NCBI GenBank assembly: GCA_035389045.1
Contig: DAOORA010000009.1
Location: 1-64,000 of the forward strand
DNA length: 64,000 nt
Source of the DNA: Bacteroidales bacterium
GTDB taxonomy: Bacteria > Bacteroidota > Bacteroidia > Bacteroidales > CAIWKO01
Reading direction: 5' to 3'
The notes under the pieces are model-generated. The model was given only the letters and a program-made list of their open reading frames with translations. It was not told where the DNA came from and searched no databases. The stretch's first letter is position 1. Every line of letters starts with the position of its first letter. Shown one piece after another: positions 1,902-18,233 of this stretch. The position numbers and the translations under genes were made by a program.

Positions 1902-4900
1902 ATGATAAAAAAAATATCTTTTTTTGCGCTGATCATAATGATCTTTTTGGAAACATCTGCACAGGTGGTCATTAATGAGTTGTCGCCATCGAATAATTCT
2001 GTCCGGGTGGATGAAGACGGAGATTACCCCGATTGGATTGAATTGTATAACACGGGCTCATCTGTGGTTTATTTAGGAGGTTACAAGCTAAGTGATAACA
2101 GTTCACAGCCGGATAAATGGATTTTTCCATCGGGAATTAGCTTACAGCCCCATGGGTTTCTGACGGTGTTCGCTTCGGATAAAAACCGTAAAGCGTTTTT
2201 CAATCACTGGGAAACCGTCGTATATGCCAATGATAACTGGCGTTACATAAAGCCGTTATCCGAGCCCGATTCGAACTGGAGAAAACTTCCTTCGTTCAAC
2301 GACGGTGCCTGGTCGCAAGGCCCTGGCGGAATAGGATACGGCGACGGGGACGACAATACACTGATTACAGCACCGGCCACATCGGTTTATATGCGGCGCG
2401 TATTTACTATCGCAGATACCTCGGTGATTGCTTCCGCAGTGTTACATATGGATTATGATGATGCTTTTGTTGCCTATATCAACGGGGTTGAAATTGCCCG
2501 GGCCAACATAGGTGTCAACGGAACACCGGTAGGCTTTTCAGTTACAGCCTTTGCCGAACACGAAGCCCGGATGTACGCCGGAGGAAAGCCGGAAGCCTTT
2601 GTCATCAGCGAGAGTGTTCTGAAATCATTTCTTGTGAATGGTAATAATGTACTGGCCATACAGGTACATAACCTAAGCCCTTTGTCGTCCGACATGAGCG
2701 CTCTGCCATGGCTTTCGGCAGGAATAAAAAACACTTCAGCAAATTACGGTGCAGTACCTTCGTGGTTTAACCTCAGCGCTTCCGCCCTGCACACCAATTT
2801 TAAATTATCTCAGAACGGTGAAACACTGATTTTATCAAATCCTGCCGGTTCTGTTATCAGCCAGGTGACCTTTGGTCTTGTACTTTCCGATCATTCATAC
2901 GGATTCCAGCCCGATGGAACGACACAGCCCAAATACTTCAAAACCCCTACTCCCGATGCCTCCAATAACCTTGTGACCGCTTACGTCGGATATACTTCGG
3001 AGCCCCAGTTTTCACTTCAGGGAGGATTTTATCCCGGTACACAGTCATTAGCCCTGTATACCTCTACGCCGGGGGGTATCATTCATTTCACTGCCGACGG
3101 GAGTATTCCTGAAATCTCATCCCCCGTATACACCATGCCGGTGCAGATTGATTCCACGGTGGTTATCAGGGCACGCACTTTTCATCCAGGCCTGCTTGAG
3201 GGGAATACCCTTTCCAACTCATATTTCATCAAAGATTCTTCTTCAGCCAGACTGCCCGTCATCTCGCTTACGGTTCCCCCGTCGCTTATGTTCGACCCCA
3301 ATACCGGCATTTATGTGAAAGGCCCGAATGCCGATGCTTCGGCGCCGTTCTTCGGCGCTAATTTCTGGCAGGAAAAAGAAATCCCTGCTCATATTGAATA
3401 TTTTGACACCTTGCGCCATCTTGGTTTTAAACAAAACATCGGAATTGAAATATACGGGAATTATTCCAGGTCATATCCTCAGAAAAGCTTGAAGATCATT
3501 GCACGGGAAAGCTATGGAAATGGTTCTTTTGACTATCATCTGTTCCCCGATAAGGATATTCACTCTTTTAAACAATTCATCATCCGGAATTCAGGCACAG
3601 ACTGGAACCAGACACATATGCGTGACGCACTCATACAAAGCCTTTCATTAAAACCTACGGATTGTGATGTTATGGCGTATCAGCCCGCGGTGGTATACAT
3701 AAATGGAAAATACTGGGGTGTTTATAACATGCGCGAAAAAATCAATAAGGATTATCTGGCTGAAAACCATAATGTTGACCCTGATTCTGTTGACCTTTTG
3801 GAATACAACGGATTTGTGATGTCGGGCTCTAATGATGCTTTTTTACAAATGGGCATGTATGTACTTTTACATGATATGTCCATCCCGTCAAACTTTGAGT
3901 TTGCAGATTCTCTTATTGACCTTAAAAACTTTGCGGATTATTTTGCTGTGGAAACATGGACCGATAACTGGGACTGGCTGACCAACAATGTACGTTACTG
4001 GAGGGAGAACAAAGCCGGAAAAAAGTGGCGTTATATTTTATGGGACCTGGATAACGGAATGGGCGGCCCCTGGTCGTATGTTTTCAATTCGCTGGATACC
4101 AACCTGCATAAAACCACTGATTATACATCCATACTTTTCAGCAGGCTGCTGGCCAACCAGGCTTACCGTAACTATTTTATCAATCGCTACGCTGACCTGA
4201 TCAACACACTATTTACGCCTCAGCATTTTAATGCAACCCTGAACAAATTCAGAAACCGGCTGGACCATGAAATGGTCAGGCATTTCAAACGATGGGGAAG
4301 CGGCTTTAGTAATCCCGACTGGGGTATCAACGGACATGGCAGTTATGACAACTGGAAAAATTATCAGTTACCCGAGTTGACGGCATTCTGCAACAACAGG
4401 CAGATCACTGCACGCAACCATATTCAGGAAACTTTCGGGCTAAAAAAACAGGTTCCCGTCACTCTGAATGTGTATCCTCCACAGGCAGGTAAAATTCTGA
4501 TCAACACCATAAGCCTTGAAGATATGCCCTGGTCGGGGATTTATTTCGACAGTGTCCCGGTCACCATCACTGTTATTCCCAATCCCGGGTATCATTTCAG
4601 TTTCTGGCAGTCTGTGATAAAGTTCCCTGCACCACAATATGATTCAACGCTGACATTTGTTCCCGATACTTCCGATGTAATCACTGCATACTTTATGGGG
4701 CAAGCAGATACAGCAAAAATCACCTTCAGCGAGATCAATTATAATTCATGGCAGGGAATGAACTCCGGTGATTGGATAGAATTGCACAATTACAGCAACT
4801 GGCCGATGGATATATCAGGATGGAAGTTCAAGGACAGCCAGGATAATAACATTTTTCTTTTACCGGAAAATACCATTATACCCCCTGATGAATACCTGGT

Positions 4901-5474
4901 GCTTTGCCAGGACACCACAGAATTCCGGTCTGTTTATCCCGGAATTAATAATATCCTTGGCTCTTTTGATTTCGGACTGAATTCTGCTGCAGAAAGCCTG
5001 CGTTTGTTCGACAGGGATATGAACATTTACCTTTCGATGACTTTTTCAGGTAACAGTCCCTGGCCGGCAGGCGCCAACGGTACCGGACGAACACTCGAGT
5101 TGCTTTCGGTGAGCGTGAATATTGACAATCCGTTGAACTGGTTTGCCGGCTGCCCCGGAGGCTCTCCGTGCGGTCCTTTTATCCCGTGCGATAACTCGGG
5201 AGAAGATACCATCAATGGTAATTCAGATGGGATTATTGCTGTTTACCCCAACCCTGTTACGGAAAGCTTGATCATCAACATCAACCCCGGCAGCCTGGCT
5301 AAGGCAGATTTTTCGTTTACCCTGTATGACATGATGGGAAAGACAGTTTATAAAATAAATGACATACCCTCAGATGAATTTACTGTGCTTAACAATTACC
5401 TACCCGGAATATACTTCTATAGGATTTTTTCTTCAGACGGCTATTTAAAAAGCGGAAAACTTGTTTTCAGATAA
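1902..5474 (+). CDS. CotH-family kinase with lamin-tail domains, chitobiase/FN3-like domain and T9SS CTD
   Basis: LTD motifs VINE...DWIELYN (N-terminal) and SEINYN...DWIELHN; CotH motifs GNYSRSYPQKSLKI, GVYNMREK, DNWDWLTNN, WRYILWDLDNG; CTD VYPNP...GIYFYRI...SGKLVFR. Confidence 0.88.
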   Translation: MIKKISFFALIIMIFLETSAQVVINELSPSNNSVRVDEDGDYPDWIELYNTGSSVVYLGGYKLSDNSSQPDKWIFPSGISLQPHGFLTVFASDKNRKAFFNHWETVVYANDNWRYIKPLSEPDSNWRKLPSFNDGAWSQGPGGIGYGDGDDNTLITAPATSVYMRRVFTIADTSVIASAVLHMDYDDAFVAYINGVEIARANIGVNGTPVGFSVTAFAEHEARMYAGGKPEAFVISESVLKSFLVNGNNVLAIQVHNLSPLSSDMSALPWLSAGIKNTSANYGAVPSWFNLSASALHTNFKLSQNGETLILSNPAGSVISQVTFGLVLSDHSYGFQPDGTTQPKYFKTPTPDASNNLVTAYVGYTSEPQFSLQGGFYPGTQSLALYTSTPGGIIHFTADGSIPEISSPVYTMPVQIDSTVVIRARTFHPGLLEGNTLSNSYFIKDSSSARLPVISLTVPPSLMFDPNTGIYVKGPNADASAPFFGANFWQEKEIPAHIEYFDTLRHLGFKQNIGIEIYGNYSRSYPQKSLKIIARESYGNGSFDYHLFPDKDIHSFKQFIIRNSGTDWNQTHMRDALIQSLSLKPTDCDVMAYQPAVVYINGKYWGVYNMREKINKDYLAENHNVDPDSVDLLEYNGFVMSGSNDAFLQMGMYVLLHDMSIPSNFEFADSLIDLKNFADYFAVETWTDNWDWLTNNVRYWRENKAGKKWRYILWDLDNGMGGPWSYVFNSLDTNLHKTTDYTSILFSRLLANQAYRNYFINRYADLINTLFTPQHFNATLNKFRNRLDHEMVRHFKRWGSGFSNPDWGINGHGSYDNWKNYQLPELTAFCNNRQITARNHIQETFGLKKQVPVTLNVYPPQAGKILINTISLEDMPWSGIYFDSVPVTITVIPNPGYHFSFWQSVIKFPAPQYDSTLTFVPDTSDVITAYFMGQADTAKITFSEINYNSWQGMNSGDWIELHNYSNWPMDISGWKFKDSQDNNIFLLPENTIIPPDEYLVLCQDTTEFRSVYPGINNILGSFDFGLNSAAESLRLFDRDMNIYLSMTFSGNSPWPAGANGTGRTLELLSVSVNIDNPLNWFAGCPGGSPCGPFIPCDNSGEDTINGNSDGIIAVYPNPVTESLIININPGSLAKADFSFTLYDMMGKTVYKINDIPSDEFTVLNNYLPGIYFYRIFSSDGYLKSGKLVFR

Positions 5475-5482
5475 AGCAGCCG

Positions 5483-6163
5483 CTATAAACTGATATTGTA
5501 TCCAATACCGATAATATGGTCGGTTCCGGGGTTTACGACATGGTATTCCTTCTGGAACATATAAAACAAATCTATGGTATTCATCCGGTTTATTTCATAC
5601 TCCAATCCGGCACAATAGCGGGTGTTGTCAAGGAAAATATCATACGGTCGTTTAAGCGGCGAATAAATCTCGGCATAAAAATAGGGTTTAATGCTTCTGC
5701 CGTCGTCATATTTAATCATCAGCTTATTACGTATATGATTTGCCGGTATTTCACCATCAGCACTTGACAACACATCGGTATACTGGCTTTGGAAACGCGT
5801 CCGTAAGGTAATTACCACCGGGTTGAATTTTTTTCGCAGCGTCAGGTCAAAATAATAACGATGCCGCATACTGTAAGAATCGTTCGACCTGCGTTTGTTG
5901 ATAAAACGGTAATTGGCAGAAATTTTCAAATATTTATTAATTTTATATGTAACACCTGCATCGGTGAAAAAAGTCCCCAGTTCAGTAAAATTTTCATTCA
6001 TTCTGAATTCCTGGTTCAGGTTGACAGATAAACCAGGAATGATTTTCTTCTCGATGCCCGCATAGATCCATAAATTGGCATCCTGCACCTGGGAAAAGCA
6101 AGTTGTTGCAGTTAACAAACCTGCAAAAAACAGTACTATCCTTTTTATTAAACCGTTCCTCAT
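5483..6163 (-). CDS. DUF2490-like outer-membrane beta-barrel protein
   Basis: Signal peptide, alternating beta-strand pattern, Arg-rich strands, C-terminal HIIGIGYNISL; ATGA overlap with upstream DUF4956 gene. Confidence 0.75.
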   Translation of the reverse strand: MRNGLIKRIVLFFAGLLTATTCFSQVQDANLWIYAGIEKKIIPGLSVNLNQEFRMNENFTELGTFFTDAGVTYKINKYLKISANYRFINKRRSNDSYSMRHRYYFDLTLRKKFNPVVITLRTRFQSQYTDVLSSADGEIPANHIRNKLMIKYDDGRSIKPYFYAEIYSPLKRPYDIFLDNTRYCAGLEYEINRMNTIDLFYMFQKEYHVVNPGTDHIIGIGYNISL

Positions 6164-6882
6164 TTTTTGTTATAGTAATATACGATGATTTTCGCTGCAT
6201 CTTTAAGAAAATCAATCTTCTGAATCTCAAAACGGTGAACATTCAATCCGGTTCTTTTTTTCAAATCGTTCAGTAATTCAGCATGGTTCTCCTGTTTAAT
6301 CATCTCGATATTTTCGTACCTGATCTCCTTCGAGCTCTCATGCCGGAAAAGCCATCTGCAGTCCAGCAAAAATGTAAATACCAGAATAATTCCGTTAATA
6401 ATTATAAGTTCATAATAGTCAAGCCTGATAGCGCTTATCAGTCCTATGCCGACAAAAAGGAACAGGTAGGTCATATCTTTCATGGATATACCCTGTGTCC
6501 GGTACCGGAGCATAGAGAATACGGCAAACAACCCAAAGGCAGCCCCCATGGACAATTTGATTTTGTTCAGCACAAAGGTCAGCATGAAAATCATCAGATT
6601 AAACATGAAGAAAGTAAAGATATTTTCGTATCTTTTATTATTGGGATAATAAATAAGGATTATAAGCATAAGCATGGTTACCACATCAATGAGCAGGCCA
6701 TACCAGAATTTCTCATTGATCTCAACATCATTCTTCTTCTTTTTTTCAACAGTGGTTCCGGAGTCATCATCAACCATAATAGATGTTTCCTGGCTGACAT
6801 TGGTCTGGGCGATGGCCGGTTGTGCGGGTGCAAGATAGCATAACAACAATAGCGCTGCTAAAAGAAATTTTAATTGTATCAT
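6160..6882 (-). CDS. DUF4956-family membrane protein
   Basis: SMGAAFGLFAVFSMLRYRT...KDMTYLF motif, several TM helices, C-terminal DLKKRTGL..IDFLKD; ATG at 6882 preferred over TTG at 6900. Confidence 0.85.
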   Translation of the reverse strand: MIQLKFLLAALLLLCYLAPAQPAIAQTNVSQETSIMVDDDSGTTVEKKKKNDVEINEKFWYGLLIDVVTMLMLIILIYYPNNKRYENIFTFFMFNLMIFMLTFVLNKIKLSMGAAFGLFAVFSMLRYRTQGISMKDMTYLFLFVGIGLISAIRLDYYELIIINGIILVFTFLLDCRWLFRHESSKEIRYENIEMIKQENHAELLNDLKKRTGLNVHRFEIQKIDFLKDAAKIIVYYYNKK

Positions 6883-7624
6883 GATGCGATTTTTTAACAA
6901 TTCGGAACTTGGGTTTAAAATTATTTATTCTGATATTATCATATACACTATAAATGCCAAAACAATATTTGCTTATGGAAACACGCGGAATATGTATGTC
7001 GCGCATCAGCAGGGCAAAAAAGGATTTTGTACTTTTATCCTGTTTTAATTCAGCAATTACAAGATTGGGATAAGATACGGTCTTTCCATTGCTTTCGTAA
7101 GTGAGGTTAAGATCAATGGTCAGGCGTTCGCGGGAACTTTTATTGACCAGGGTGATCCTTTTGTATTTAACCCATAGTCTTGCAAGCAAAGTGTCAGGAT
7201 TGATCGTGGATTTTTTTAAAACAAAACGTTTTGTTTCTTCCGATAGTTGTTCTTCAATACCATACATGCGGAAACGTTGTTTCAGGGTACGGCTTTTATT
7301 GCTCTTGAATTTAACTTCAAAAAAGGTCACATCGGTATCCTTATAGCAACGATACCGTACTTTATAGCGGTTTAATTTACCGCATTGATGCTGGCGGAAA
7401 AGATTAAAATCTTTTGTATCATAATAAAGTGTTTCATAATGGTTGGTACGGATATCGCCGAAACTCAGTATACGGTAATCCGAAACCAGCGCTTTTAATA
7501 TTCCGGGTAAATAACTGATATTAAACGTAAATTTTGTATCTACCCTGTTCAGTAATTTCACCTCATTCATTTCTTCTAATGAGATGGGGTCAAAAGAATC
7601 TAATATTTTCAGTATTTCATCCAT
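6770..7624 (-). CDS. VTC-domain (polyphosphate polymerase-like, CYTH/TTM tunnel fold) protein
   Basis: LLNRVDTKF, YETLYYDT, RYKVRYRCY, FFEVKFK, YKRITLVN..ERLTID, IAELKQ, SKYC motifs; last ~37 codons probably arise from a frameshift. Confidence 0.88.
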   Translation of the reverse strand: MDEILKILDSFDPISLEEMNEVKLLNRVDTKFTFNISYLPGILKALVSDYRILSFGDIRTNHYETLYYDTKDFNLFRQHQCGKLNRYKVRYRCYKDTDVTFFEVKFKSNKSRTLKQRFRMYGIEEQLSEETKRFVLKKSTINPDTLLARLWVKYKRITLVNKSSRERLTIDLNLTYESNGKTVSYPNLVIAELKQDKSTKSFFALLMRDIHIPRVSISKYCFGIYSVYDNIRINNFKPKFRIVKKSHHDTIKISFSSAIVVMLSCTRTTGHRPDQCQPGNIYYG

Positions 7625-7643
7625 GTATCAATCATTGCAATGA

Positions 7644-8207
7644 TCAATAATACTCATATATATAATGCCTGCCCGACTCCAGATCGCCTGCTTTATTAAA
7701 TGTCTGCCTGGTTTCCTTCATTTTCCTGGAATTATAGGTGTAGACAAATTTCTTATCCAGATTCCCTGCGCCATCATAAACCATCTCTGTGGCCTTATCA
7801 CCGTTGGCATTATAGGTATATGTTGTCTTTTTTATCAGGGCTCCATCCTTATATTCTGCTTCTTCAGTACAATCACCATTGGCATTGAATTTATATATTT
7901 TTTTTTCATTGATATTTTTTTTCTGGTCAAAGAGAGTTTCCTCGGTCTTATTACCAAAGGCATCAAATTTTTGGGTTTCCTTGATCTTTATGCTTCCGTC
8001 TTTGTTATATTCGGATTTTTCTAACTCTTCACCATCTTTGTTATACAATGTATAGGCAACTTTATAGCCATCGGTTTTACTGTCCTTTTTATCGGCCTGC
8101 CAGGTGGTAATACTCTTGATTTTATTGGCCCTGATCTCTTTCTTCTTTTGGCCGTATACAGCGGACAACAAAGAAATACATAGGATCAGCAGTGTTATTT
8201 TCTTCAT
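7644..8207 (-). CDS. Secreted Lys-rich protein with YD/RHS-like beta-hairpin repeats
   Basis: Signal peptide; repeated Y-x-Y-N-x-x-G...E-x-x-Y units; about 30 Lys in 187 aa. Confidence 0.65.
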   Translation of the reverse strand: MKKITLLILCISLLSAVYGQKKKEIRANKIKSITTWQADKKDSKTDGYKVAYTLYNKDGEELEKSEYNKDGSIKIKETQKFDAFGNKTEETLFDQKKNINEKKIYKFNANGDCTEEAEYKDGALIKKTTYTYNANGDKATEMVYDGAGNLDKKFVYTYNSRKMKETRQTFNKAGDLESGRHYIYEYY

Positions 8208-8213
8208 GATCCT

Positions 8214-8615
8214 TTATTTAAATATCACAATATCTTCAGTTTCGACTTCCTGATTATTTTTGGTGATCTCAACATCCCGTATTACCGGGATCATAGCATT
8301 GGTCTGCAATGTGGAGTCTTCAGAATAAGCATACACATGATACATACCCTTTCTGAGGTACTTAAACTCAAAGGTTCCGTCGTAATTCGACCTTATGCGT
8401 TCACTGTATGTTTTATCATCACCGTAAATAATATAAACATCTATATCCTGCCCAAAGTACTGTTCGAGAAAAACGGAATATGTTGAATTATAATCCCTTA
8501 CAATTATTTTTCCATAAATACTCGATGTACCTCCTTCGCCGGCCTCTTTTTTACAGGAATTAAAAAACATAGCCGGCAGTGCAGCTAACAAAAAGATTAT
8601 GACTTTGGTTCTCAT
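8214..8615 (-). CDS. Lipoprotein with transthyretin/carboxypeptidase-regulatory-like beta fold
   Basis: Start re-placed at MRTKV; lipobox FFNS-C-KKE; YDGTFEFKYLRKGMYHVYAYS. Confidence 0.7.
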   Translation of the reverse strand: MRTKVIIFLLAALPAMFFNSCKKEAGEGGTSSIYGKIIVRDYNSTYSVFLEQYFGQDIDVYIIYGDDKTYSERIRSNYDGTFEFKYLRKGMYHVYAYSEDSTLQTNAMIPVIRDVEITKNNQEVETEDIVIFK

Positions 8616-8686
8616 ATAATTTAATTTAATACTTCCTTTTATATTCGACTTAAAAATAGTATAATAAATTCTAATAAAATTAAAAA

Positions 8687-10987
8687 TCATTGTCCTATAA
8701 CAAATTTATTACAGATCAATCCATTTGAAGTTTCAATAACCATAAGATATAAACCGATATGTAAACCGGAAATATCAATTTTCACAATTTCAGATCCCAT
8801 GGATGATTTATGGCAAGGATAACCCGAAATGACATGCTGTCCCTTAGAATTATATATCTTATAAGAAACAATATCACCGGAGTTGCTCAGCTCGCAATAA
8901 ATATTGCCGGTGGCCGGGTTGGGAAACAGGACAAAACTGCCGGCAGGAAGCGTTTCGATGTAATTATTTTCCGCGAAAGAAGGCTGCATAAAAATAAAAG
9001 GCCCATAACCATTAGGATAACGGCCATACGTTCTGTCGGCAGATTGTAATCCATACCGAACCGAATCCAGCACATTCGTATTGGCGTCCAGTAAATAAAG
9101 CCTGCCCCCTTCATGGTTCGTTGAAAACCCTGCATGAAGTTTTCCCTGGCTGGTATCAGCATCAGCCCAGACAACAATAAAAGATTGACCAGCCACAACG
9201 GTATCCGGAAAAGCCCATTTTAAAGGTTCCTCCGGATCATCCGACAAAAATAATTGCCCGATATCCTGGCTTTCCCCGGTAGTGTTGAAAATCTCGATCC
9301 AGCCACCCAGCCCGCAACCCTGAGAATTTCCCATACCGTAACCAGACATTAATTCATTAATAACCATATCGCCGGAATTAAACAAAGGCTGTATATGATA
9401 AAATTCATACGCGGCCCGTTCGGGTGAGAACATCCCTGCGCTGTCGTTCTGGGCATAAATATAATACTGTACCACAGGTCCCTTAGTCATAATGCCTGCA
9501 CCGAATATCCCGTCACCGGAAACGCTGTCGTTATGAGCACCGTCATCATACATACATATGCTTTTAAAAACAGCATCCGTTTTGTAACGATAGTGAAGAA
9601 AAACCTCTCCGGCTCCGGAAACTGCTGCATTGATCCATACTTGTGCTCCCTGTGCCGGAAAATCCGGATCATGACTTATTTCGGAAATTACAGGAGCGCC
9701 CTGAAAACCCGGAAAAGTATCCAGATACGCGATCCGGGCTTCCATAAGGTCCCTGAGTCCCGGAAAAACATTATTCCCCGAACCTACCGTGGTATCTAGG
9801 TTCTGATGAAACTGTGCATAGGGATAAAACTTATTGGTGTCGTTTTGCACATACTGATCGATCCTGTTTTGCAACTCCAGTCCTCTTGTGAGGTAAAAGT
9901 TGTTTCGGAAATTCTCATTGATAATGGTCTTCATATGCGCCAGGAACATCTTTTTCCTCGTCGGATTCTGCAGAAGATTCACAATAAGAGGTCGCGGTGA
10001 CAAAGGCGTGGATGCCAGCATTTTCAGCGGATCCAATGATTTTCTCTTGAGAATGGTAAGTCCGTTGGGCGGGGCAGTAATACCATCGGTTTCCTTGAAA
10101 CTGCCGAACGACATATTAAAATCCCACATAACCGGGTTGAAACGCCCATAATTATCCATATAAAGATAATAATTCTGCGAATATCCTATATAGCTATCCA
10201 GGTTGACCAGTGCATAGTTGATGGCATGCATCCAGAGCGTCCTGTCAATATATAAAATAGTATCGATATGAGAAGTATCATTATTCAAAATGTCAATGAG
10301 TCTTAAAAGATCAGGCCAGGCCTTTTCAGGGTCATCCGATTCAAGTTTATAATAGGGCTTATAACTTGATGTGTCATCATCAAAATAGGTAAGATTAGAG
10401 TTTTGTCCACCCGGAATGATCAGGTGTTCGGGTGCGCCCTTGAAAAAAGTGTTATCTCTTTCGCCGAAACGGGAACCGGCAAAATTCTTGTCCACAGCTT
10501 CCACATTAGTATATAATCCCAGCAAAGTATCATTGACATACACATTGGCAAAATTTGCCTTTGAAGCAGGGAGATATTTTCTTGCAATTTCATACGACAA
10601 CACCTCTCTCACAAAAGAGGGGTCCTGTATGACATTACTAAGTTTCAGTTTTGTATAACCCTGGTAATTCTGATTATTGTAATTATATTCAAGGTCTATA
10701 TTAAAAGGGCTTTTCACAACATCGGGATCGAAAGAACTATACCCTTTATATCGCACTCCAATGTTACGGAACATCTTTCCTTCGACCATCACATCGCCCA
10801 GCAACCGCCCATCTTCTCCAACATATTGATGCAGACTGTCGAGTATATAATCCCAGTTACCCTCTTTAAAATAAATACGAACCTCCCGGATACTGTCAGC
10901 ATCATAGAAATCACTCTGTGAACGCACAGTGAATGCACATAAAACAGATAGTATAAGAAACAATATGATGCTTTTTACCTTAGCCAC
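8687..10987 (-). CDS. Second CotH-family kinase with LTD and T9SS CTD
   Basis: VRYKGYSS, KSPFNIDL, GLYTNVEAVD, NLDSYIGYSQNYYLY, WDFNMSFG; MYDDGAHNDSVSGDG motif; LTD VINE..WIEIFN; CTD LFPNP...GLYLMVI...NKFVIGQ. Confidence 0.88.
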   Translation of the reverse strand: MAKVKSIILFLILSVLCAFTVRSQSDFYDADSIREVRIYFKEGNWDYILDSLHQYVGEDGRLLGDVMVEGKMFRNIGVRYKGYSSFDPDVVKSPFNIDLEYNYNNQNYQGYTKLKLSNVIQDPSFVREVLSYEIARKYLPASKANFANVYVNDTLLGLYTNVEAVDKNFAGSRFGERDNTFFKGAPEHLIIPGGQNSNLTYFDDDTSSYKPYYKLESDDPEKAWPDLLRLIDILNNDTSHIDTILYIDRTLWMHAINYALVNLDSYIGYSQNYYLYMDNYGRFNPVMWDFNMSFGSFKETDGITAPPNGLTILKRKSLDPLKMLASTPLSPRPLIVNLLQNPTRKKMFLAHMKTIINENFRNNFYLTRGLELQNRIDQYVQNDTNKFYPYAQFHQNLDTTVGSGNNVFPGLRDLMEARIAYLDTFPGFQGAPVISEISHDPDFPAQGAQVWINAAVSGAGEVFLHYRYKTDAVFKSICMYDDGAHNDSVSGDGIFGAGIMTKGPVVQYYIYAQNDSAGMFSPERAAYEFYHIQPLFNSGDMVINELMSGYGMGNSQGCGLGGWIEIFNTTGESQDIGQLFLSDDPEEPLKWAFPDTVVAGQSFIVVWADADTSQGKLHAGFSTNHEGGRLYLLDANTNVLDSVRYGLQSADRTYGRYPNGYGPFIFMQPSFAENNYIETLPAGSFVLFPNPATGNIYCELSNSGDIVSYKIYNSKGQHVISGYPCHKSSMGSEIVKIDISGLHIGLYLMVIETSNGLICNKFVIGQ

Positions 10988-11034
10988 TTTCCCTCAGGAT
11001 TTCTTATCAGATATATGAAATTTTTGATTATTCC

Positions 11035-12285
11035 TTATTCCTTAATGAATTTCCCATAAAACACTTTTTCGCCATCCGTAATTTTCATAAAATATACACC
11101 ACTATCCAATTTTTCAGTATCAATGGTGGCAGGCACAGAAATAACTTCATTTAAAAACACCCTGCCGGTAACATCTGATAGAACAACACTGCCTGAACGT
11201 ACGTAGCCGTTAATGTTAAGCACCTGCTGAACGGGGTTCGGGTATATATTAATATTCAAATCTTTTATATTTTCACTGATACCTGATTGGTCAACATATT
11301 TTGAAAGTCCTGCTCCTGTAGCGATCCATAATACATTATTCTGGTCTGCGGCAATACTGAATACCTGATCATCAACAAGGCCATCCGGTTCCGAAAATGA
11401 TACGCCGGTGCCGGTGGCAGCATTGAATTTAGTGATACCTCCTTCGATCAATGAGCCGTATTTGGTAAATTCCCCTAACCAGATATTGCCTTCAGCATCA
11501 ATTTCAATGTCCTGCACTCCGGGGTCACAAATTCCATTCGTTGTGTCATAATTGGCAACCCAGGCATCCGAACTGTTCAGTTTGGCAATACCATTTGCCG
11601 AAACGCCCAGCCACCTGTTGTTGCCGGCATCCACAGCAATGGAGGTAATGATATTGCTTTTGAGCTGGGTTATGGTAGTCTGATTGTATGTGGAAAATGT
11701 AGAATTATATTTCACCAGTCCCAGATCCGTACCGAACCATTTATTATTCATTCCATCAATATAAATATAATAAATCGAAGCTATCGCACCGGCATCCGAT
11801 GGGAGCCCGTCAGCATCAGTGTAAGTGGTCCATGTGGAACCGCTCAGCTTCGACAAGCCTGCGCCCCATGAGCCGAACCAGATATCTCCGGTATTTTCAC
11901 TTGCGATTGCATGAATACCATTATCACATAAGCCATCCGCATTGGTATAAGTCGTCCATGAAACGCCGTCGTATCTGGCCACACCGTCACCCTCGGTTCC
12001 GATCCAGATATTATTATTGGTTTTATCAACGGCTATACACGATATGATATCCACAGGCAGCCCATCGGCAGTGGTATATACAGTCCAGTTCGTACCGTCA
12101 AATTTTGCAACCCCTGCATCCGTCCCCACCCATACATTATTGCTGGTATCAATAACAACCCCTCCGACCACATAATCACTGGGGAGGATGCTGTTCCCGG
12201 TTGTGTAATTGGTGAACTGAGCATTCACACTACAGATCATGCCAAACATGAAAATGCAAATGGTGACTAAATGTAACTTTTTCAT
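11035..12285 (-). CDS. Two-component-regulator-type beta-propeller protein (PorZ-like repeats) with T9SS CTD
   Basis: Seven repeats of type IAVD..NNIWIGT..GVARYDG..WT.YT..DGL; CTD IYPNP...GVYFMKI...GKFIKE. Confidence 0.8.
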   Translation of the reverse strand: MKKLHLVTICIFMFGMICSVNAQFTNYTTGNSILPSDYVVGGVVIDTSNNVWVGTDAGVAKFDGTNWTVYTTADGLPVDIISCIAVDKTNNNIWIGTEGDGVARYDGVSWTTYTNADGLCDNGIHAIASENTGDIWFGSWGAGLSKLSGSTWTTYTDADGLPSDAGAIASIYYIYIDGMNNKWFGTDLGLVKYNSTFSTYNQTTITQLKSNIITSIAVDAGNNRWLGVSANGIAKLNSSDAWVANYDTTNGICDPGVQDIEIDAEGNIWLGEFTKYGSLIEGGITKFNAATGTGVSFSEPDGLVDDQVFSIAADQNNVLWIATGAGLSKYVDQSGISENIKDLNINIYPNPVQQVLNINGYVRSGSVVLSDVTGRVFLNEVISVPATIDTEKLDSGVYFMKITDGEKVFYGKFIKE

Positions 12286-12389: not shown

Positions 12390-14162
12390 CTATTTTATTA
12401 AAATTATTTTTTTATTGATAAGGTTATTGTCTGAAGTTTTTACACTCAGATAATATATACCATTTGCAAAATCTGACAAATTGATCATTTTGCTGTTTTT
12501 CCCGCAAAAAACCACATCTCCGAATGAACTGCATATCTTTACTTCATAGTCATTATTCAGTGCGAATTCTTCATTGATATTGATGATGCCGGATGTCGGA
12601 TTGGGGTAGATAGTTAATGATGCCTTTTCGGTACTGTTTTCATTCATGCCAGTACAGGCTTCAACAACCACGGTAGCAAACGCCGTAGTTGTGGTGGTAA
12701 TGGTATTTGAATTGAAAGTACCTGACATGGAAACGGTTACCAGATAGGTATATGTTCCTGCAACGGACGGCACTGCTGTCGGGTTTTGATCAGAAGCAGA
12801 AGAAAAAGATGATGTGGCAGGAACGGATACCCAGGAATAAGTATAGACAGGATTGGAAATCACGGGCGCTGATTTTATGTTACAATTGAGTGTTATCATA
12901 CTGCCGGCACATAGGGTGTCGGACGTGGCTGTTGCAGTTATCCAGGGTCCGAAAACATCAGTTTTTTTAAGCCGGTCCGATTGTGTTGTACTTACGGTAA
13001 TACTTTGCAGAGCAGTTGTACTGTTTCTGGATTCCACAAATTTCGAATTCGGTACCGTCATAAGAATATTTCCATTATCCAGCGCCTGGCAACCACCCTG
13101 TCCCTGAATAGAAAGGTTGGGTATGGTTGGTTTTACACAGGTAGAAGGGCCGACCACCGAACCGGGGGCATAGGTATAATTATAAGGATTGGAAGTTGAG
13201 TAAGGCGGAAGATGCAAAACCGCCTGGGCATTACCTCCGGAATTGTTATGCAACACACTCAGATAATTTGGCCATACCAAATTGGTCGCCGGAACCCACC
13301 GGCAGTCATGAATGGTATTTAGTGATATGCCGTTGCCATCGGTAGTGCAGCCATAATTCTCAGGGCTTCCCCACCGGTAAAGAAAATCACCCCCCTTACC
13401 TGATTTACCTCCGGCATGTGTCGCAGCTTCAGCTGTTGTGGTACTATGGTCTATAACATAAATCTCTTCTTTAACGTGCGAACATATAGCAATCTGGTCA
13501 AGTGTCGGGTTATAATCTATACCGTTCATATGAAACCAGTCGGATGTTATGCCTCCGTTAGTAGTGCAGTTTACATTGAACCGTTCGGGATGCTGTGCAA
13601 TATTGGTCACATAGGTGGCCGGATAAGCTGAATTTGTGCTCTGGCAGAGATGATCCCATAAATGCCATTCCCAGACAACGGTTCCTGTTGTTGAACCGGT
13701 AGGTTTTATTTCCCTGATAACCGGCGACTTAACAGTGGAGCTTGATGTACCGCCCACACTGCTTGGCACCTTTGACTCGTCGACTATCACCAGTACATTG
13801 CCGTTGGGCATGGGACAAATATCATGATGGGCGCCGGATAAAGTATAGGTCCAGACGTTGTTAACAGTATTATTTCCGGTCCATGCCCATTTTCTCACGG
13901 ATCCATAACCTCCCGCAGTACCGCCATTCCCATAAGTCTGATAAATTGTATCGTGATAAAAATGAGCCGAATAGGTGGTACTTCCGATATTAAACCTTTG
14001 AAAATAACCTGAAGATGTAGTTGCCGCAGTATCAATTAAATAAGCATAACTACTGCCGGTACAGAAGGTATACATCTCCTGTTGCTGAGCATTTACATGA
14101 TTTAAAACGAAAAAACTAATGATTATTAGCGAAAATCTAATCAGGTGATTGCTTGTGTTCAT
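12390..14162 (-). CDS. Arylsulfate sulfotransferase (ASST)-like beta-propeller with T9SS CTD
   Basis: HHDICPMPNGNVL, VVWEWHLWDHL, DWFHMNGIDYN, IDHSTTTAEAA...GGDFLYRWG, IHDCRW; CTD IYPNP...GIYYL...KKIILIK. Confidence 0.78.
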   Translation of the reverse strand: MNTSNHLIRFSLIIISFFVLNHVNAQQQEMYTFCTGSSYAYLIDTAATTSSGYFQRFNIGSTTYSAHFYHDTIYQTYGNGGTAGGYGSVRKWAWTGNNTVNNVWTYTLSGAHHDICPMPNGNVLVIVDESKVPSSVGGTSSSTVKSPVIREIKPTGSTTGTVVWEWHLWDHLCQSTNSAYPATYVTNIAQHPERFNVNCTTNGGITSDWFHMNGIDYNPTLDQIAICSHVKEEIYVIDHSTTTAEAATHAGGKSGKGGDFLYRWGSPENYGCTTDGNGISLNTIHDCRWVPATNLVWPNYLSVLHNNSGGNAQAVLHLPPYSTSNPYNYTYAPGSVVGPSTCVKPTIPNLSIQGQGGCQALDNGNILMTVPNSKFVESRNSTTALQSITVSTTQSDRLKKTDVFGPWITATATSDTLCAGSMITLNCNIKSAPVISNPVYTYSWVSVPATSSFSSASDQNPTAVPSVAGTYTYLVTVSMSGTFNSNTITTTTTAFATVVVEACTGMNENSTEKASLTIYPNPTSGIININEEFALNNDYEVKICSSFGDVVFCGKNSKMINLSDFANGIYYLSVKTSDNNLINKKIILIK

Positions 14163-14217
14163 ATAAAATATTTTATTATAAATTAATACACATTAGTTCA
14201 CTTATACCCTGATATTT

Positions 14218-15942
14218 TTACTTAATTAAAACAACTTTTTTTCTAATTAGCTCTTTATCACTAGTTTTAACAATGATGTAGTAAATGCCAATTGCATAAG
14301 GTGAAAGATCAATATGTGTCACATTATTTTTCTGTATGATAAGTTCTCCGAAAGAATTATAAATGCTGACTTCAAAATCATTATCAAGTGTAAATGCTTC
14401 ATTTAGATTGATCATTCCGGTGGTTGGGTTGGGAAAAAATTGTAATCCGGCATTTTTCATTTCGCTTTCTTCAGTTCCTGTACATGCATTCACTGTAATA
14501 CTAACCGATGCAGTGGCCGTGCAGCCTGCATTGTTGGTAACCGTAACCGTATAGGTGTAATTGCCGGCTGTTGTTGGTGTGACTGTTGGATTTTGTGATG
14601 ATGAAGAAAAACCCCCTATATCAGACGTCCATGAATATGAATGTGTCGGGTTGGTTTCCATAATTGATGTGGCTGATGACCCTAAAGAAAACGGAGTATT
14701 AACACATATGGAATTATCTGAAGTGGTAGCTGTCACAACAGGATATCTCACCTCACATTTTTTGAGTCTGTCGGCCTGAACCGACATGACTTGAACATTC
14801 TGGTAGGTTGTTCCGGCTCCGTTACACTCATAAAACCGGGCATTGGGGTTCATAACCAGGATATTACCATTTTCAAGCGCCTGGCAGCCACCCATATTCT
14901 GCACTGTAAATGCAGGCGTGGTGGGTGTAACACCAGATGTAGGACCGATTACTGACCCTGCCGTATACGTATAGTTATACCCGTTATAGGGGGGCAAACA
15001 AAGAACTGCAGCATGTCCTGAACTGCATCCGCCGTTATGGAAAAAGCTGATATAACCGGGATATAATGTATTTGTCGTGAGTACCCAGCGCACGTCATGA
15101 ATAACATTTAATGTTACGCCGTTGCCATTCGCAGTACAATTATAATTTTGGGGTTTGCCCCAACGGTATAAAAAATCTCCGCCTTTTCCGGAATTTCCTC
15201 CCGCACTGGTAGCCGCCTCTGCAGTTGTGGTGCTGTGATCTATCACAAATATTTCGTCATGATTGTGTGAACTGAATACAATCTGGTCTAAGGTGGGATT
15301 ATAGTCCAGGCCGTTTGGATGAAAACCATCCGTGGTCAGATTACAGTTAATATTCCAGCGCTGAGGACAATTGGCTACATTGGAATAATAATTCGGATAA
15401 GAAGACCCTTTGCTTTGACACAAATGATCCCACAACTTCCACTCCCAAACTACTGTACCGCTTGTTGCCCCAGTTGGCTTAATTTCACGAATGATATCAA
15501 AAGAATAAGTAGTGCCGCTTGAGACATTACCACCTATAGCCTGCACCTGAGAAAGAGTTTTGGTTTCACGTACCAGAACCAACACATTGCCATTGGGCAT
15601 CGGGCATAAATCATGATGCATTTTGGAGGCAGTGTAAGTCCAAACACAGGTCGCAGTTGTGGGGCTGGTTATCGCCCATTTTTTCACCGAACCATAACCT
15701 CCGGTACCCGAACCCTGACCGTAGCCCTGATAGATAGTATCATTTTGGAAATGTGCTGTATATGGTGTTTGACCAATATTCCACCGGGCAAAATAACTTG
15801 ATGATGTCGTGGATGTTGTATCGAACAAATAAGCATAACTGCTTCCCGTACAGAACGTATACATCTCCTGTTGCTGAGCATCAGTCTTTTCTGCACCAAA
15901 AGACAAGTACATAATTATAAAAACAAACAACGTTTTTTTCAT
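14218..15942 (-). CDS. Second ASST-like beta-propeller with T9SS CTD (paralogue of 12390..14162)
   Basis: Same motifs (HHDLCPMPNGN, FHPNGLDYN, GGDFLYRWG, IHDVRW); start MKKTLF preferred. Confidence 0.78.
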   Translation of the reverse strand: MKKTLFVFIIMYLSFGAEKTDAQQQEMYTFCTGSSYAYLFDTTSTTSSSYFARWNIGQTPYTAHFQNDTIYQGYGQGSGTGGYGSVKKWAITSPTTATCVWTYTASKMHHDLCPMPNGNVLVLVRETKTLSQVQAIGGNVSSGTTYSFDIIREIKPTGATSGTVVWEWKLWDHLCQSKGSSYPNYYSNVANCPQRWNINCNLTTDGFHPNGLDYNPTLDQIVFSSHNHDEIFVIDHSTTTAEAATSAGGNSGKGGDFLYRWGKPQNYNCTANGNGVTLNVIHDVRWVLTTNTLYPGYISFFHNGGCSSGHAAVLCLPPYNGYNYTYTAGSVIGPTSGVTPTTPAFTVQNMGGCQALENGNILVMNPNARFYECNGAGTTYQNVQVMSVQADRLKKCEVRYPVVTATTSDNSICVNTPFSLGSSATSIMETNPTHSYSWTSDIGGFSSSSQNPTVTPTTAGNYTYTVTVTNNAGCTATASVSITVNACTGTEESEMKNAGLQFFPNPTTGMINLNEAFTLDNDFEVSIYNSFGELIIQKNNVTHIDLSPYAIGIYYIIVKTSDKELIRKKVVLIK

Positions 15943-16014
15943 ATTTGACCAAAATTTCAATAAAGATGTTTTTAGAATGATTATTTAAACTAATGAATAG
16001 CAAATTTTTATAAA

Positions 16015-16107
16015 CAAAAATATAAATTTTTTTTAAAAAAAATCAGTAATTCTTAAATAATCTACGTTTATTACAAAATAATCGACAAAAGAACTTTGTT
16101 TGTCGAT
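16015..16107 (-). promoter_or_regulatory. Putative promoter (-7 TATTTTTG) of the ASST/CotH/VTC operon with upstream 21-bp-periodic candidate LytTR boxes
   Basis: CAAAAATA at 16015-16022 on +; TCTAC/TCGAC/TCGAT at 16061, 16082 and 16103. Confidence 0.5.
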
Positions 16108-16397
16108 AATAAATATTTATCCAGCTTGCATTAATACGATTTTAAAGCAATAAGTACAGCAAAAATCACACAACTTCTATCAAATATGTATTATTTATAT
16201 TTTCCTCTTAATAAAAACTCAGACCACAACAAAAATCGGAGAATCAATCCTGATACAGAATTAATCATAATTAATTCGTTGCCCGTATGAAAGGATCAAA
16301 GACAAAAAAAAACTTTTTCTCTATAAAATTCAACATTATATCTATTTTATTTTTTTATTAATCTTCTTTTTAGGAAATTTGTTATTATTTTAAAATA

Positions 16398-17471
16398 ATG
16401 AAATTAACCACTTCATATAACAAAAGTCCTTTGGTGTTCAATATCCTGATGCATCTTGCTGTCTGGGTAATATTATTCAGCCTTCCGGTATTGTTTTATC
16501 CCGGAGAGTTAAGTTCGTTCAGGGTTGTATTCCGGATGAACTGGATTTTTTTATTTTTTGCAGGTATATTATTCTATCTGAACTATTTTTTTCTTGTTGA
16601 TTTTTTTGTTTTTGGAAAAAAAACAATTTGGTTTGTCATTATAAATCTGCTCCTTATTGCAGCCTTTACATGGCTAAACGATCAGTTAATAATGAACTTA
16701 CACAGGCCATTACTTGGCGATCCCGGGCCGCCACATCCTCCGGGACATGGACAAATGCCCATGTTTAAACCCGACAGGAATATGTTTTTCATAAGAAATG
16801 CAGGCACCTATTTAGTCCCGGTGATCATTAGTCTGGTATTACGGGTTTTGAAAAGAATAAAAAAAGTTGAAGCAGAAAAAAAAGACATCGAACGTGAAAG
16901 GCTCCAGGCTGAATTAATGCACCTGAAAAACCAGCTTCACCCCCATTTCTTTTTTAATTCGCTGAATAACATCTACGCTTTGGTAGATATCTCTCCCGAA
17001 AAATCAAAAGTTGCAATTCATGGGCTTGCAAAACTTATACGTTATTTACTATATGAAACCGACACTAATTTTGTCAAACTTTCTCAGGAAATTGATTTCC
17101 TGAAAAAATATACCCAGCTCATGCAACTCAGGCTGAATGATAAAATCAAACTGACTACTTCTTTTCCTGAAAGCACCGGAGATCTGATTATTGCCCCCCT
17201 GCTCTTCCTGCCTTTGATAGAAAATGTTTTCAAGCATGGCATTACAAGTACCGCATCAAAATTAGTCATCGAGATAACAACGGATAAAGATGTTGTGATT
17301 TTCAGGTCGATGAATGAATATAGTCCGGTTGAAAGTATGGCCGCTGAGAAAGGTATTGGCATTTATAATCTTAAAAAAAGACTTGAACTTCTCTACCCCG
17401 GGAAACATGAATTCAAAACAGAGATAAATGATAGAACTTATTTTACCTGGTTATCTGTAAAAACCAATTAA
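16398..17471 (+). CDS. LytS/YehU-type sensor histidine kinase
   Basis: N-terminal TM helices; LKNQLHPHFFFNSLNNIY H-box; PLIENVFKHG; GIGIYNLKKRLELLYP. Confidence 0.92.
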   Translation: MKLTTSYNKSPLVFNILMHLAVWVILFSLPVLFYPGELSSFRVVFRMNWIFLFFAGILFYLNYFFLVDFFVFGKKTIWFVIINLLLIAAFTWLNDQLIMNLHRPLLGDPGPPHPPGHGQMPMFKPDRNMFFIRNAGTYLVPVIISLVLRVLKRIKKVEAEKKDIERERLQAELMHLKNQLHPHFFFNSLNNIYALVDISPEKSKVAIHGLAKLIRYLLYETDTNFVKLSQEIDFLKKYTQLMQLRLNDKIKLTTSFPESTGDLIIAPLLFLPLIENVFKHGITSTASKLVIEITTDKDVVIFRSMNEYSPVESMAAEKGIGIYNLKKRLELLYPGKHEFKTEINDRTYFTWLSVKTN

Positions 17472-17510
17472 CCAAAATGAAGATATACTACCTTTGATTT
17501 TCGATAAACC

Positions 17511-18233
17511 ATGAGAATAATAAATTGTATTATTGTTGACGATGAGCCTCTTGCGCTCGACCTTCTGGAAAGTTATGTTCGAAAAACATCTTTTCTGCAC
17601 CTGGCAGCACGCTGCAGCAATGCTTTTGAAGCTATTGAAGTGATCAATAATGAAAGAGTGGATTTGATTTTCCTGGATATCAGCATGCCGGAATTAAACG
17701 GTCTCGAATTTTCGCGCACGCTGTCAAAAGAACAAAAAGTGGTGTTCACCACAGCCTATGAAAAATATGCGCTGGAGGGTTATAAAGTGGATGCCCTTGA
17801 CTATTTGCTCAAGCCATATAATTATGAAGAATTTTTAAAAGCAGCCAACAAAGTCAGGGCATGGTTCCAAATGTCCGACACCATCCCGTCCGCTCCGGAA
17901 CCCACAAAAGCAATTTTTGTGAAATCGGAGTACAAACTTATTAAAATTGATCTTGGCCAGATATTATTCATTGAAGGACTGAAGGATTATGTCAAAATTG
18001 TCCTTCTCGATAAAGAAAAATCCGTTTTATCCCTTATGAGCCTGAAATCACTGGAATTGCAACTGCCTCCTGAACAATTCATGAGGATTCACCGTTCCTA
18101 TATCATCAACCTGAACAAGATCGAACAGATTGAACGTAATCAGGTGATTATTGGCAAAACACGTATCACCATTGCTGATATTTACAAAGAAAAATTCATG
18201 AAATACATTGATTCCAAATCAATGAGTCCATAA
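17511..18233 (+). CDS. LytTR-family response regulator
   Basis: IVDDEPLA, FLDISMP, FTTAY, DYLLKP; LytTR domain FMRIHRSYIINL. Confidence 0.95.
   Translation: MRIINCIIVDDEPLALDLLESYVRKTSFLHLAARCSNAFEAIEVINNERVDLIFLDISMPELNGLEFSRTLSKEQKVVFTTAYEKYALEGYKVDALDYLLKPYNYEEFLKAANKVRAWFQMSDTIPSAPEPTKAIFVKSEYKLIKIDLGQILFIEGLKDYVKIVLLDKEKSVLSLMSLKSLELQLPPEQFMRIHRSYIINLNKIEQIERNQVIIGKTRITIADIYKEKFMKYIDSKSMSP

Follow-up and report, generated by a model that had tools for sequence, protein, structure and literature searches.

Within a 64,000-nucleotide stretch of a sludge Bacteroidales genome (GenBank assembly GCA_035389045.1, contig DAOORA010000009.1, positions 1 to 64,000 of the forward strand; hereafter the window), a small lipoprotein, a Lys-rich YD-repeat protein, a VTC-domain protein, DUF4956, and DUF2490 form a conserved core that is flanked by CotH kinases carrying sorting domains of the type IX secretion system (T9SS). 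Because every Vtc4 triphosphate- or metal-binding residue that can be checked is kept in the VTC protein, we assign it, from its predicted active site, to the cytoplasmic, catalytic-type (Vtc4-type) tunnel enzymes, and it is a candidate polyphosphate polymerase. The best reading of the cluster, which we hold tentatively and at a little less than even chances, is that a polyphosphate synthase is coupled here to a route through the envelope and that CotH is its co-inherited surface partner. A stronger version, in which Bacteroidota and, judging by how widely the families occur, many other prokaryotes have a PPK-independent, yeast-type synthase that extrudes polyphosphate through DUF4956 and an outer-membrane route to the surface, where the polymer powers the secreted CotH kinases or supplies their phosphoryl groups, is improbable when taken as a whole.

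In the usual view, PPK1 and PPK2 synthesize the polyphosphate of bacteria, and it remains in the cytoplasm. If the favored reading were true, the cluster would represent a third route of polyphosphate synthesis in bacteria and the first dedicated route that places the polymer in or beyond the envelope. It would bear on biofilm matrices (through a version linked to pel genes), on phosphate cycling in activated sludge, on metal binding, and on how secreted kinases such as CotH obtain a phosphoryl donor outside the cell, where ATP is absent. The VTC and DUF4956 families are very widespread, also beyond Bacteroidota, with more than 6,100 VTC relatives and more than 5,600 DUF4956 relatives at E<=1e-10, and since they occur in a genetically tractable gut species, the idea is directly testable.

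The VTC enzyme and its coupling to DUF4956

The VTC protein matches Pfam VTC (PF09359) at 90.4 bits against a cut-off of 23, over profile positions 1-235 of 235 and residues 26-228. Searched alone against solved structures by single-sequence phmmer it found no match, and a profile of 15 homologues matched the Vtc4 structures 3g3q (E 3.3e-9) and 8i6v_E (E 4.9e-8) and could also be aligned to 5iiq. With Vtc4 numbered from the full-length chain 8i6v_E, this profile alignment pairs K31 with K200, R90 with R264, R92 with R266, K105 with K281, Y154 with Y359, R156 with R361, E192 with E426, S218 with S457, and K219 with K458, and nine of nine triphosphate- and Mn-binding positions are kept. A cryo-EM preprint on the VTC complex describes these nine Vtc4 residues as holding the triphosphate or Mn2+ and as needed for polyphosphate synthesis, and gives K458 as the sole difference from the inactive Vtc2 and Vtc3, which have Ile or Leu there (10.1101/2023.01.27.525886). 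Across 76 aligned sequences the basic residues and S218 are invariant, as is K219 (76/76, and 15/15 in the smaller set), E192 is kept in at least 90%, and Y154 was checked in the window protein only. An earlier note on this DNA, made by a model from the sequence and its open reading frames (ORFs), had proposed a signal-less enzyme that makes polyphosphate, and the assignment to the Vtc4 type is borne out at each of the positions that can be checked; the product would be polyphosphate. No signal peptide is predicted on the VTC protein, as that note had stated, and one is present on every other protein of the run.

The 284-residue protein carries no SPX domain, no transmembrane (TM) domain, no other Pfam match, and no hydrophobic segment, and it therefore stands outside the architecture of the eukaryotic VTC complex (yeast Vtc4/Vtc3/Vtc1; 3g3q, 7ytj, 8i6v). 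What it shares with that complex is the catalytic Pfam family, the kept residues, and the tie between an enzyme and a membrane protein, which is made here by translational coupling. Unlike Vtc4, the window enzyme lacks SPX and a fused three-helix TM domain; DUF4956, with five TM helices and an ACT-like domain, has no detectable relation to the TM subunits of Vtc1, Vtc3, or Vtc4; and the polymer would be destined for the periplasm or surface rather than a vacuole, with additional periplasmic and outer-membrane partners.

Close VTC homologues are 248-257 residues long and cover 86% of the window protein, which has a C-terminal extension of about 34 codons (6770-6900, minus strand) that is absent from all of them. 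This extension accounts for the unusual 113-nucleotide overlap with DUF4956. A run of six A residues (A6) sits where the homologues end, and the extension could have arisen through loss of a stop codon, by a frameshift, or as an artifact of assembly. In another genome (L022:8300-10633, plus strand; G224) the VTC domain lies at the C terminus of a 778-787-residue open frame, and Pfam matches nothing in the first 500 residues of that frame, which is either a true fusion or over-long. A GH114 gene lies upstream of it.

DUF4956 matches its Pfam family (PF16316) at 174 bits against 30.6, over positions 1-169 of 169. The AlphaFold2 model (pLDDT 80.5) places helices at residues 57-82, 86-107, 112-129, 134-151, and 156-174 and a C-terminal domain at 182-237, and the predicted layout comprises a signal-peptide-like N terminus, a disordered acidic and Lys-rich segment, five TM helices, and an ACT-like alpha/beta domain. 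G117, R126, R128, T129, and F141 are invariant in 87 DUF4956 sequences, with the motif G..F..F...RYRT. In the modeled topology the RYRT motif would lie at the cytoplasmic end of TM3 and the C-terminal domain in the cytoplasm; the N terminus is predicted to be outside because in homologues the N-terminal tail is acidic and the loop that follows TM1 is basic. The signal-like N terminus is covered by close homologues, which are 239-250 residues long and up to 75% identical.

The overlaps by which the earlier note had coupled VTC, DUF4956, and DUF2490 are present. An ATGA overlap at 6160-6163 joins DUF4956 and DUF2490, and the overlap between VTC and DUF4956 is 113-131 nucleotides if DUF4956 starts at ATG 6882 or TTG 6900 and 8 nucleotides if it starts at ATG 6777. 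The coupling of VTC stop and DUF4956 start recurs in 9/9 homologous junctions, as an overlap of 4-20 nucleotides or a gap of at most 12, and in one of the related loci (L011) the start of a long-form DUF4956 and the stop of VTC overlap as ATGA. One low-depth RNA-library contig has an extra T after window position 6739, within a homopolymer toward the 5' end of the DUF4956 gene; this is probably an error.

Co-occurrence and gene neighborhoods

Profile matches for VTC, DUF4956, DUF2490, and CotH were cross-tabulated by hand in a sample of 251 Bacteroidota genomes. Because related genomes are not independent, the figures are descriptive counts and not statistical tests. VTC was found in 38 genomes, DUF4956 in 77, DUF2490 in 88, and CotH in 101. 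DUF4956 and CotH are each present in every one of the 38 VTC genomes; CotH occurs in 63/213 VTC-less genomes and in 74/77 DUF4956 genomes. DUF4956 lies at most 311 bp downstream on the same strand for 39/42 VTC matches, within 3 kb for two more, and the last match is a fragment at a contig end; the association that the earlier note expected between these two families is thus far beyond chance. DUF2490 is present in half of the VTC genomes (19/38). In a control set of 14 named genomes searched for the same families, VTC and DUF4956 occur in the same three, B. thetaiotaomicron, C. glutamicum, and M. acetivorans, two of which are non-Bacteroidota, and CotH occurs in these three and in B. subtilis. 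The expectation that DUF2490 is confined to diderms agrees with the controls, where it matched in two diderms only, B. thetaiotaomicron being one of them. The CotH counts may be underestimates, since one genome counted as negative (G111) encodes a 341-residue secreted protein after DUF4956 (L026:10419-11441, plus strand) that has no Pfam match but can be aligned with CotH domains and, by eye, shows the CotH-like motifs SNSDW ... YDFDMSG.

In the genome that holds the window (G000), which is 96.3% complete, we found no match to PPK1, PPK2, or Ppx-GppA; with neither PPK1 nor PPK2, the genome is left with VTC as its sole candidate for making polyphosphate. PPK1 is missing as well from G075 and G119, the two VTC-bearing genomes of its order. 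As a general replacement for PPK1, VTC was rejected because 34/38 VTC genomes keep PPK1, and such a role is possible for this genome and its order. Five genomes with DUF4956 and no VTC all have PPK2, two of them also lack PPK1, and none yielded a VTC relative with our own homologue profile.

Neighborhoods of 20 kb were collected around 17 VTC loci and three VTC-less DUF4956 loci, and these 20 sampled loci were scanned with the window proteins and with Pfam and NCBIfam. Eight closer loci (in the range L027-L034) were taken from named records of metagenome-assembled genomes (MAGs), which gives 28 related loci in all, and homologues in them were sought by tblastn at E<=1e-5. Within the class to which the window belongs, the VTC-DUF4956 pair stands in varied housekeeping contexts with CotH never within 8 kb; DUF2490 adjoins it in four of these loci (L007-L009 and L014), two of which (L009 and L014) have the lipoprotein beside it too. 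In other classes DUF2490 adjoins in L017-L019 and the lipoprotein in L019. DUF2490 is thus next to VTC or DUF4956 in 8/20 sampled loci (7/17 with VTC, plus the VTC-less L020 of G135), and it is also adjacent in G220, judged by coordinates, and in 6/8 closer loci (L027-L031 and L033). Homologues of the lipoprotein adjoin VTC or DUF4956 at 29-41% identity in the three sampled loci just named and at 35-74% in L027, L028, L030, and L032, which makes it a recurrent partner of the pair. A homologue of the Lys-rich protein lies directly upstream of VTC in 5/8 closer loci (L027-L030 and L032; 31-65% identity) and in 0/20 sampled loci, and this protein is a conserved partner restricted to a lineage. 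The entire block of lipoprotein, Lys-rich protein, VTC, DUF4956, and DUF2490 is kept from Bacteroidales to a Flavobacteriales MAG (L027-L030 and L032).

Elsewhere the pair keeps other company. HlyD-like adaptors lie upstream of VTC in L016, L021, and L023 (NF002939, E 1.7e-7 to 3.1e-11, below curated cut-offs, as are all adaptor and duct matches in the related loci), and CotH genes follow the pair in L021-L024. In L024 (G149) a TolC-family OEP gene and a 177-residue OmpW-like barrel lie upstream, and a Porin_O_P-like barrel of 334 residues lies downstream, between DUF4956 and CotH (10424-11425, plus strand; porin O/P 22 bits against 20.9, E 1.1e-4). Two of the VTC-less loci also hold CotH or a CotH-like gene: L020 has CotH, DUF2490, and DUF4956, and L026 has DUF4956, the CotH-like protein described above, and a metallophosphoesterase. 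In the monoderm locus L034, from a Butyrivibrio MAG, VTC and DUF4956 are accompanied by a Cthe_2159 protein and by neither barrel nor adaptor. Genes for Cthe_2159 carbohydrate-binding beta-helix proteins stand beside the pair there (L034:11390-13186) and in two Bacteroidota loci (L007:12089-13699 and L008:7993-9522).

The nearest relative of the window, L028, also has the propeller, CotH A, and a fragment of an ASST-like gene. Between its CotH A and lipoprotein genes lies a T9SS calcineurin-like metallophosphoesterase (L028:7860-8984, plus strand; Metallophos 1.4e-14, Por_Secre_tail 3.1e-14), and Metallophos genes are found near the module in L016 and L026 as well.

The earlier note allowed that the gene association might have been noted elsewhere, and it has been: in the portions of two preprints that were available, cotH, a polyphosphate-polymerase-domain gene, and DUF4956 (with DUF4832 or DGC-PDE) adjoin Gram-positive pel operons, and these accessory genes are assigned no function there (10.1101/768473; 10.1101/2024.04.20.589940). 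Those loci, as described in the same portions, resemble the window in having the three families in one operon and a CotH that is predicted to be secreted, and differ in being from monoderms, beside Pel polysaccharide genes, with no outer-membrane parts. The window has no pel genes and adds DUF2490, the lipoprotein, the YD-repeat protein, and T9SS-sorted CotH. A functional description of the VTC-DUF4956-DUF2490-CotH set was found nowhere in the searchable full-text literature, to which subscription journals and bioRxiv supplements do not belong, and among the matches listed for VTC polyphosphate polymerase and its bacterial homologues all papers concern eukaryotes.

Envelope partners and the route of the polymer

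The match of DUF2490 to its family (PF10677) scores 90.6 bits against 29.8, the protein begins with a signal sequence, and it is present as a single copy in the genome. Its AlphaFold2 model (pLDDT 91.7) has 11 DSSP strands. Foldseek returned NanC (2wjr, TM-score 0.52/0.56), KdgM (4pr7, 0.49/0.61), and autotransporter and PgaA barrels, and the DUF2490 profile matches the intimin barrel at E 7.2e-5. The protein is modeled with high confidence as a small outer-membrane beta-barrel, and PF10677 is listed as a putative porin family, TC 1.B.81 (PMC4827864). Its three invariant residues, R86, R102, and R145, are all Arg, as are 5 of the 17 that are nearly invariant, and a crude count on the model gives 17 basic and 10 acidic lumen-facing residues. 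The barrel had been called Arg-rich, which holds for these conserved positions and not for the overall composition (14 R in 202 mature residues). The acidic-oligosaccharide porins KdgM and NanC are similar in barrel size, in fold (TM-score 0.49-0.61), and in basic residues that are predicted to face the lumen, but sequence similarity is negligible (KdgM E 0.15), a TM-score near 0.5 is generic for small barrels, and many DUF2490 models have a buried charge network according to the accessible part of a recent preprint (10.64898/2026.07.29.741452).

In its mature form the Lys-rich protein contains 30 K and 4 R as against 13 D and 16 E; it is Lys-rich as had been described, and with a net charge of only +5 the earlier term basic fits it only in part. 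Its Atlas neighbors are small RHS/YD-repeat proteins, and it is a periplasmic sheet protein of that kind. The lipoprotein is a beta-sandwich with a prealbumin-like domain and weak Pfam matches to fn3_3, SpaA, and CarboxypepD_reg.

In the reading that we favor, the cytoplasmic Vtc4-type enzyme would polymerize polyphosphate from ATP at the membrane and pass the polymer to the translationally coupled DUF4956, with RYRT at the cytoplasmic end of TM3, and DUF4956, as a putative translocator, would deliver it into the periplasm. In this lineage the lipoprotein, the Lys-rich protein, and DUF2490 would join the pair, the polymer would reach the surface through or with the barrel and its partners, and T9SS-secreted CotH kinases may act with or on it there. 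The polyphosphate product, its translocation by DUF4956, its passage by way of DUF2490, and a chemical link to CotH are each steps that we infer. The strongest argument for export is that the core recruits four kinds of envelope-spanning partner across lineages and none in the monoderm; passage through the envelope is favored because the pair adjoins HlyD-like, TolC-like, or OprO/P-like genes in other lineages. Such HlyD-like or TolC-like genes, which flank the pair or DUF4956 in L016, L021, L023, and L025, recall tripartite efflux-type systems. The window differs from these in having a DUF2490 barrel, a lipoprotein, and a YD-repeat protein instead of an adaptor and TolC (Pfam and NCBIfam found no HlyD adaptor or TolC duct gene in window positions 1-24000), and no ABC, RND, or MFS pump is part of the set.

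Several observations weigh against this reading, the strongest being that DUF4956 has no channel-like relative, that it often occurs without VTC, and that the pair can stand alone. The earlier note had made DUF4956 the inner-membrane pore, which our comparisons do not bear out: neither profile nor fold detects a solved relative, the yeast VTC channel included. Foldseek against the PDB gave nothing at E<=1e-3 and only weak ACT-like matches for the C-terminal domain; the best score in a wide VIA-align search was to helical coat proteins of viruses, at a Z of 8.1 that is no more than noise among helical bundles; the DUF4956 profile matched nothing among PDB sequences, with no VTC chain at E<=10; and an Atlas search yielded no usable match. 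The channel subunits of yeast VTC are absent from the Foldseek and VIA-align lists, an absence that does not exclude a relation. Four distant DUF4956 proteins (L016, L021, L023, and L024) instead match MgtC (PF02308) with E 4.2e-6 to 2.3e-3 over positions 1-119 (24-115 in L024) of 121, at 18.7-27.5 bits and thus below the cut-off of 31.4. MgtC is a regulatory membrane protein that is not known to be a channel. DUF4956 and the MgtC/SapB family are built alike, with a small ACT-like domain in the cytoplasm after five TM helices, but that family has no known link to a VTC enzyme, and the window DUF4956 has no MgtC match at E<=10.

The phyletic pattern adds further counterweights. About half of the DUF4956 genomes (39/77) have no VTC. 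DUF2490 occurs in 69/213 VTC-less genomes and is common in the class regardless of VTC, and the genome with a DUF4956-DUF2490-CotH set and no VTC (G135) also lacks PPK1 and has PPK2. One VTC-less locus (L025:10033-12935, plus strand; G084) has the order DUF4956, HlyD-like, TolC-like, with no known pump. In 5/17 VTC loci (L010-L013 and L015) the pair is surrounded by housekeeping genes, none of the genes close by encoding an envelope partner. The buried salt-bridge network in many DUF2490 models, reported in the accessible part of the preprint cited above (10.64898/2026.07.29.741452), may indicate that the barrel is plugged and not open. The literature searched holds no biochemical data on bacterial VTC or DUF4956 proteins, and the authors of the S. 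intermedius preprint suggest, in its available portion, that polyphosphate may stay in the cytoplasm (10.1101/2024.04.20.589940). In the Bacteroidota family of G084, divergent DUF4956 occurs in 33/41 genomes and VTC in 2/41, with one locus examined.

In an alternative that we consider unlikely, synthesis is membrane-anchored and cytoplasmic: polyphosphate would stay inside, an MgtC-like DUF4956 would only anchor or regulate the enzyme, for example through its ACT-like domain, and the barrel, lipoprotein, and CotH genes would be envelope genes of separate function that accompany it. The sub-threshold MgtC similarity and shared architecture, the missing fold likeness to any channel, the lone pairs, and the suggestion of cytoplasmic polyphosphate in the available portion of that preprint (10.1101/2024.04.20.589940) are all consistent with it, and with no PPK1 or PPK2 in this genome, VTC could simply be its polyphosphate synthase. 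However, the retention of PPK1 in 34/38 VTC genomes argues against a general stand-in, and no PPX was found in this genome that could use a cytoplasmic store. It also leaves unexplained both the extracytoplasmic CotH in all 38 VTC genomes and the repeated recruitment of DUF2490, HlyD-like, TolC-like, and OprO/P-like partners.

A second possibility, to which we give a small probability, is that polyphosphate goes no further than the periplasm, where it would buffer phosphate or cations, with DUF2490 as a porin selective for phosphate or oligophosphate that serves exchange with the medium and with only an indirect link to CotH. It has an analogy in the function of yeast VTC as given in the available part of one paper (PMC9911596), and it would suit a small barrel of the 12-strand class with conserved arginines, the OprO/P-like porin beside the pair in L024, and the secreted or periplasmic metallophosphoesterases nearby in L028, L016, and L026. 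HlyD-like and TolC-like partners, however, are typical of expulsion across the outer membrane, and a periplasmic store would leave the strict genome-level tie to surface CotH unexplained.

That tie counts in favor of the full model of the earlier note, in which surface CotH and ASST-like enzymes take their phosphoryl group from exported polyphosphate or from one of its products. The Pfam CotH (PF08757) scores of the two window proteins, 145.5 and 134 bits, exceed the cut-off of 23.8. CotH A aligns to B. cereus CotH (5jd9, E 1.7e-5), and CotH B found no match by phmmer against the PDB. CotH A keeps the Asp of NLDS and the first Asp of WDFN, and CotH B keeps NWDW and WDLD; the first Asp of WDxD/N is invariant in 9/9 aligned CotH domains, and the Asp of N.D is present in both window proteins and in a third copy in the genome. 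Counted on the 5jd9 alignment with its 23-residue spacing, these aspartates would correspond to D228 and D251, and mutating these inactivates B. subtilis CotH according to the accessible part of the report (PMC7821199). Both window kinases are thus secreted proteins with both predicted catalytic aspartates, CotH is present in 38/38 VTC and 74/77 DUF4956 genomes, and it adjoins the pair in the window, L021-L024, L028, L030, and L032. A CotH A orthologue of 71% identity holds the same place in L028, and a full-length orthologue of CotH B (38%) directly follows VTC-DUF4956 in L023 (G097), with a relative of 34% in L021 (G229). Against this model, the donor used in the characterized CotH work, as far as the accessible part of the paper goes, is ATP (PMC7821199), and 63/101 CotH genomes have no VTC and 27/101 no DUF4956, a phyletic pattern that is at odds with a polyphosphate donor. 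ASST-like genes, moreover, are missing from 26/28 related loci, and their Pfam match covers about one third of the ASST profile. We judge the use of polyphosphate as a donor by CotH to be unlikely to moderately likely, and the full model to be decidedly improbable.

The weakest alternative, which we regard as very improbable, is that the VTC-like protein is a triphosphatase or cyclase-like tunnel enzyme in a module that handles another phosphorylated compound; the versatility of the tunnel (TTM/CYTH) fold, which supports several chemistries, the low identity to Vtc4, and the empty phmmer search with the window protein alone speak for it, but all nine Vtc4 substrate and metal residues are kept, K458 included, the Pfam VTC match is well above cut-off, and no CYTH-family match is listed.

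Cluster layout and remaining genes

The gene run and its flanks are confirmed: positions, domains, overlaps, and orientations match the earlier description, and ORF positions and Pfam domains agree with the content and order given there for the minus-strand run (Table 1). CotH B converges on the run and ends 9 nucleotides from DUF2490, and the LytS/LytTR pair diverges from it across a gap of 437 nucleotides, both in the arrangement first described. A T9SS C-terminal sorting domain (PF18962 or TIGR04183) scores above cut-off in both CotH proteins, the propeller, both ASST-like proteins, and the protein encoded at 308-1897.

Table 1. Genes of the cluster in window coordinates, with the features that identify them.
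Feature	Position	Strand	Domains and remarks
CotH kinase-family protein B	1902-5474	+	CotH E 3.5e-42, two LTD, CHB_HEX_C, T9SS C-terminal domain; 1190 residues, signal peptide
DUF2490 barrel	5483-6163	-	Pfam E 1.4e-25; 226 residues, signal peptide
DUF4956 inner-membrane protein	ORF 6160-6900; 6160-6882 from ATG 6882	-	Pfam E 2.6e-51; 240 residues
VTC-domain protein	6770-7624	-	Pfam E 1.7e-25; 284 residues
Lys-rich YD/RHS-repeat-like protein	7644-8207	-	187 residues; no Pfam match above cut-off; SPI signal peptide
Small lipoprotein	ORF 8214-8690; lipoprotein 8214-8615	-	Lipobox ...FFNSC
CotH kinase-family protein A	8687-10987	-	766 residues; signal peptide; CotH E 1.1e-38, LTD E 1.9e-12, Por_Secre_tail E 1.4e-10
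Reg_prop/PorZ-like propeller	11035-12285	-	Pfam; T9SS C-terminal domain
Two ASST-like paralogues	12390-14162 and 14218-15960	-	Partial ASST matches, PKD, T9SS C-terminal domain
LytS-type His_kinase	16398-17471	+	Pfam/NCBIfam
Response regulator with LytTR	17511-18233	+	Pfam/NCBIfam

The ASST-like pair, the propeller, and the LytS/LytTR pair are outside the model proposed here. The two ASST-like proteins are 55% identical to each other and score 63.3 and 47.9 bits against a cut-off of 24.2, over profile positions 73-208 and 91-207 of 374. The propeller (64% identity) and an ASST fragment (60%) are syntenic only in the closest relative, L028, and neither the propeller nor the ASST-like proteins have a homologue in the 20 sampled loci, which does not favor their earlier inclusion as parts of the system. 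The LytS/LytTR pair, which had likewise been linked to the cluster, has homologues in 0/28 related loci (tblastn, E<=1e-5), among which L028 is uninformative because its contig ends before this position.

A scan of the intergenic gaps of the minus-strand run gave no terminator-like site, and the sigma-70 consensus is ill-suited to Bacteroidota. Two activated-sludge metatranscriptome runs contain near-identical contigs that cover portions of the cluster to a depth of less than 5, which indicates presence in RNA libraries only and not transcription or operon structure; stretches that no contig covers carry no meaning. In B. thetaiotaomicron, BT3498-99 are DUF4956 and DUF2490 neighbors that appear in an iron-limitation table in the accessible part of a published study (PMC10434189). 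The third CotH gene of the window's own genome lies on another contig, away from the cluster, in a 1099-residue frame (L004; G000:C3:104894-105808, plus strand).

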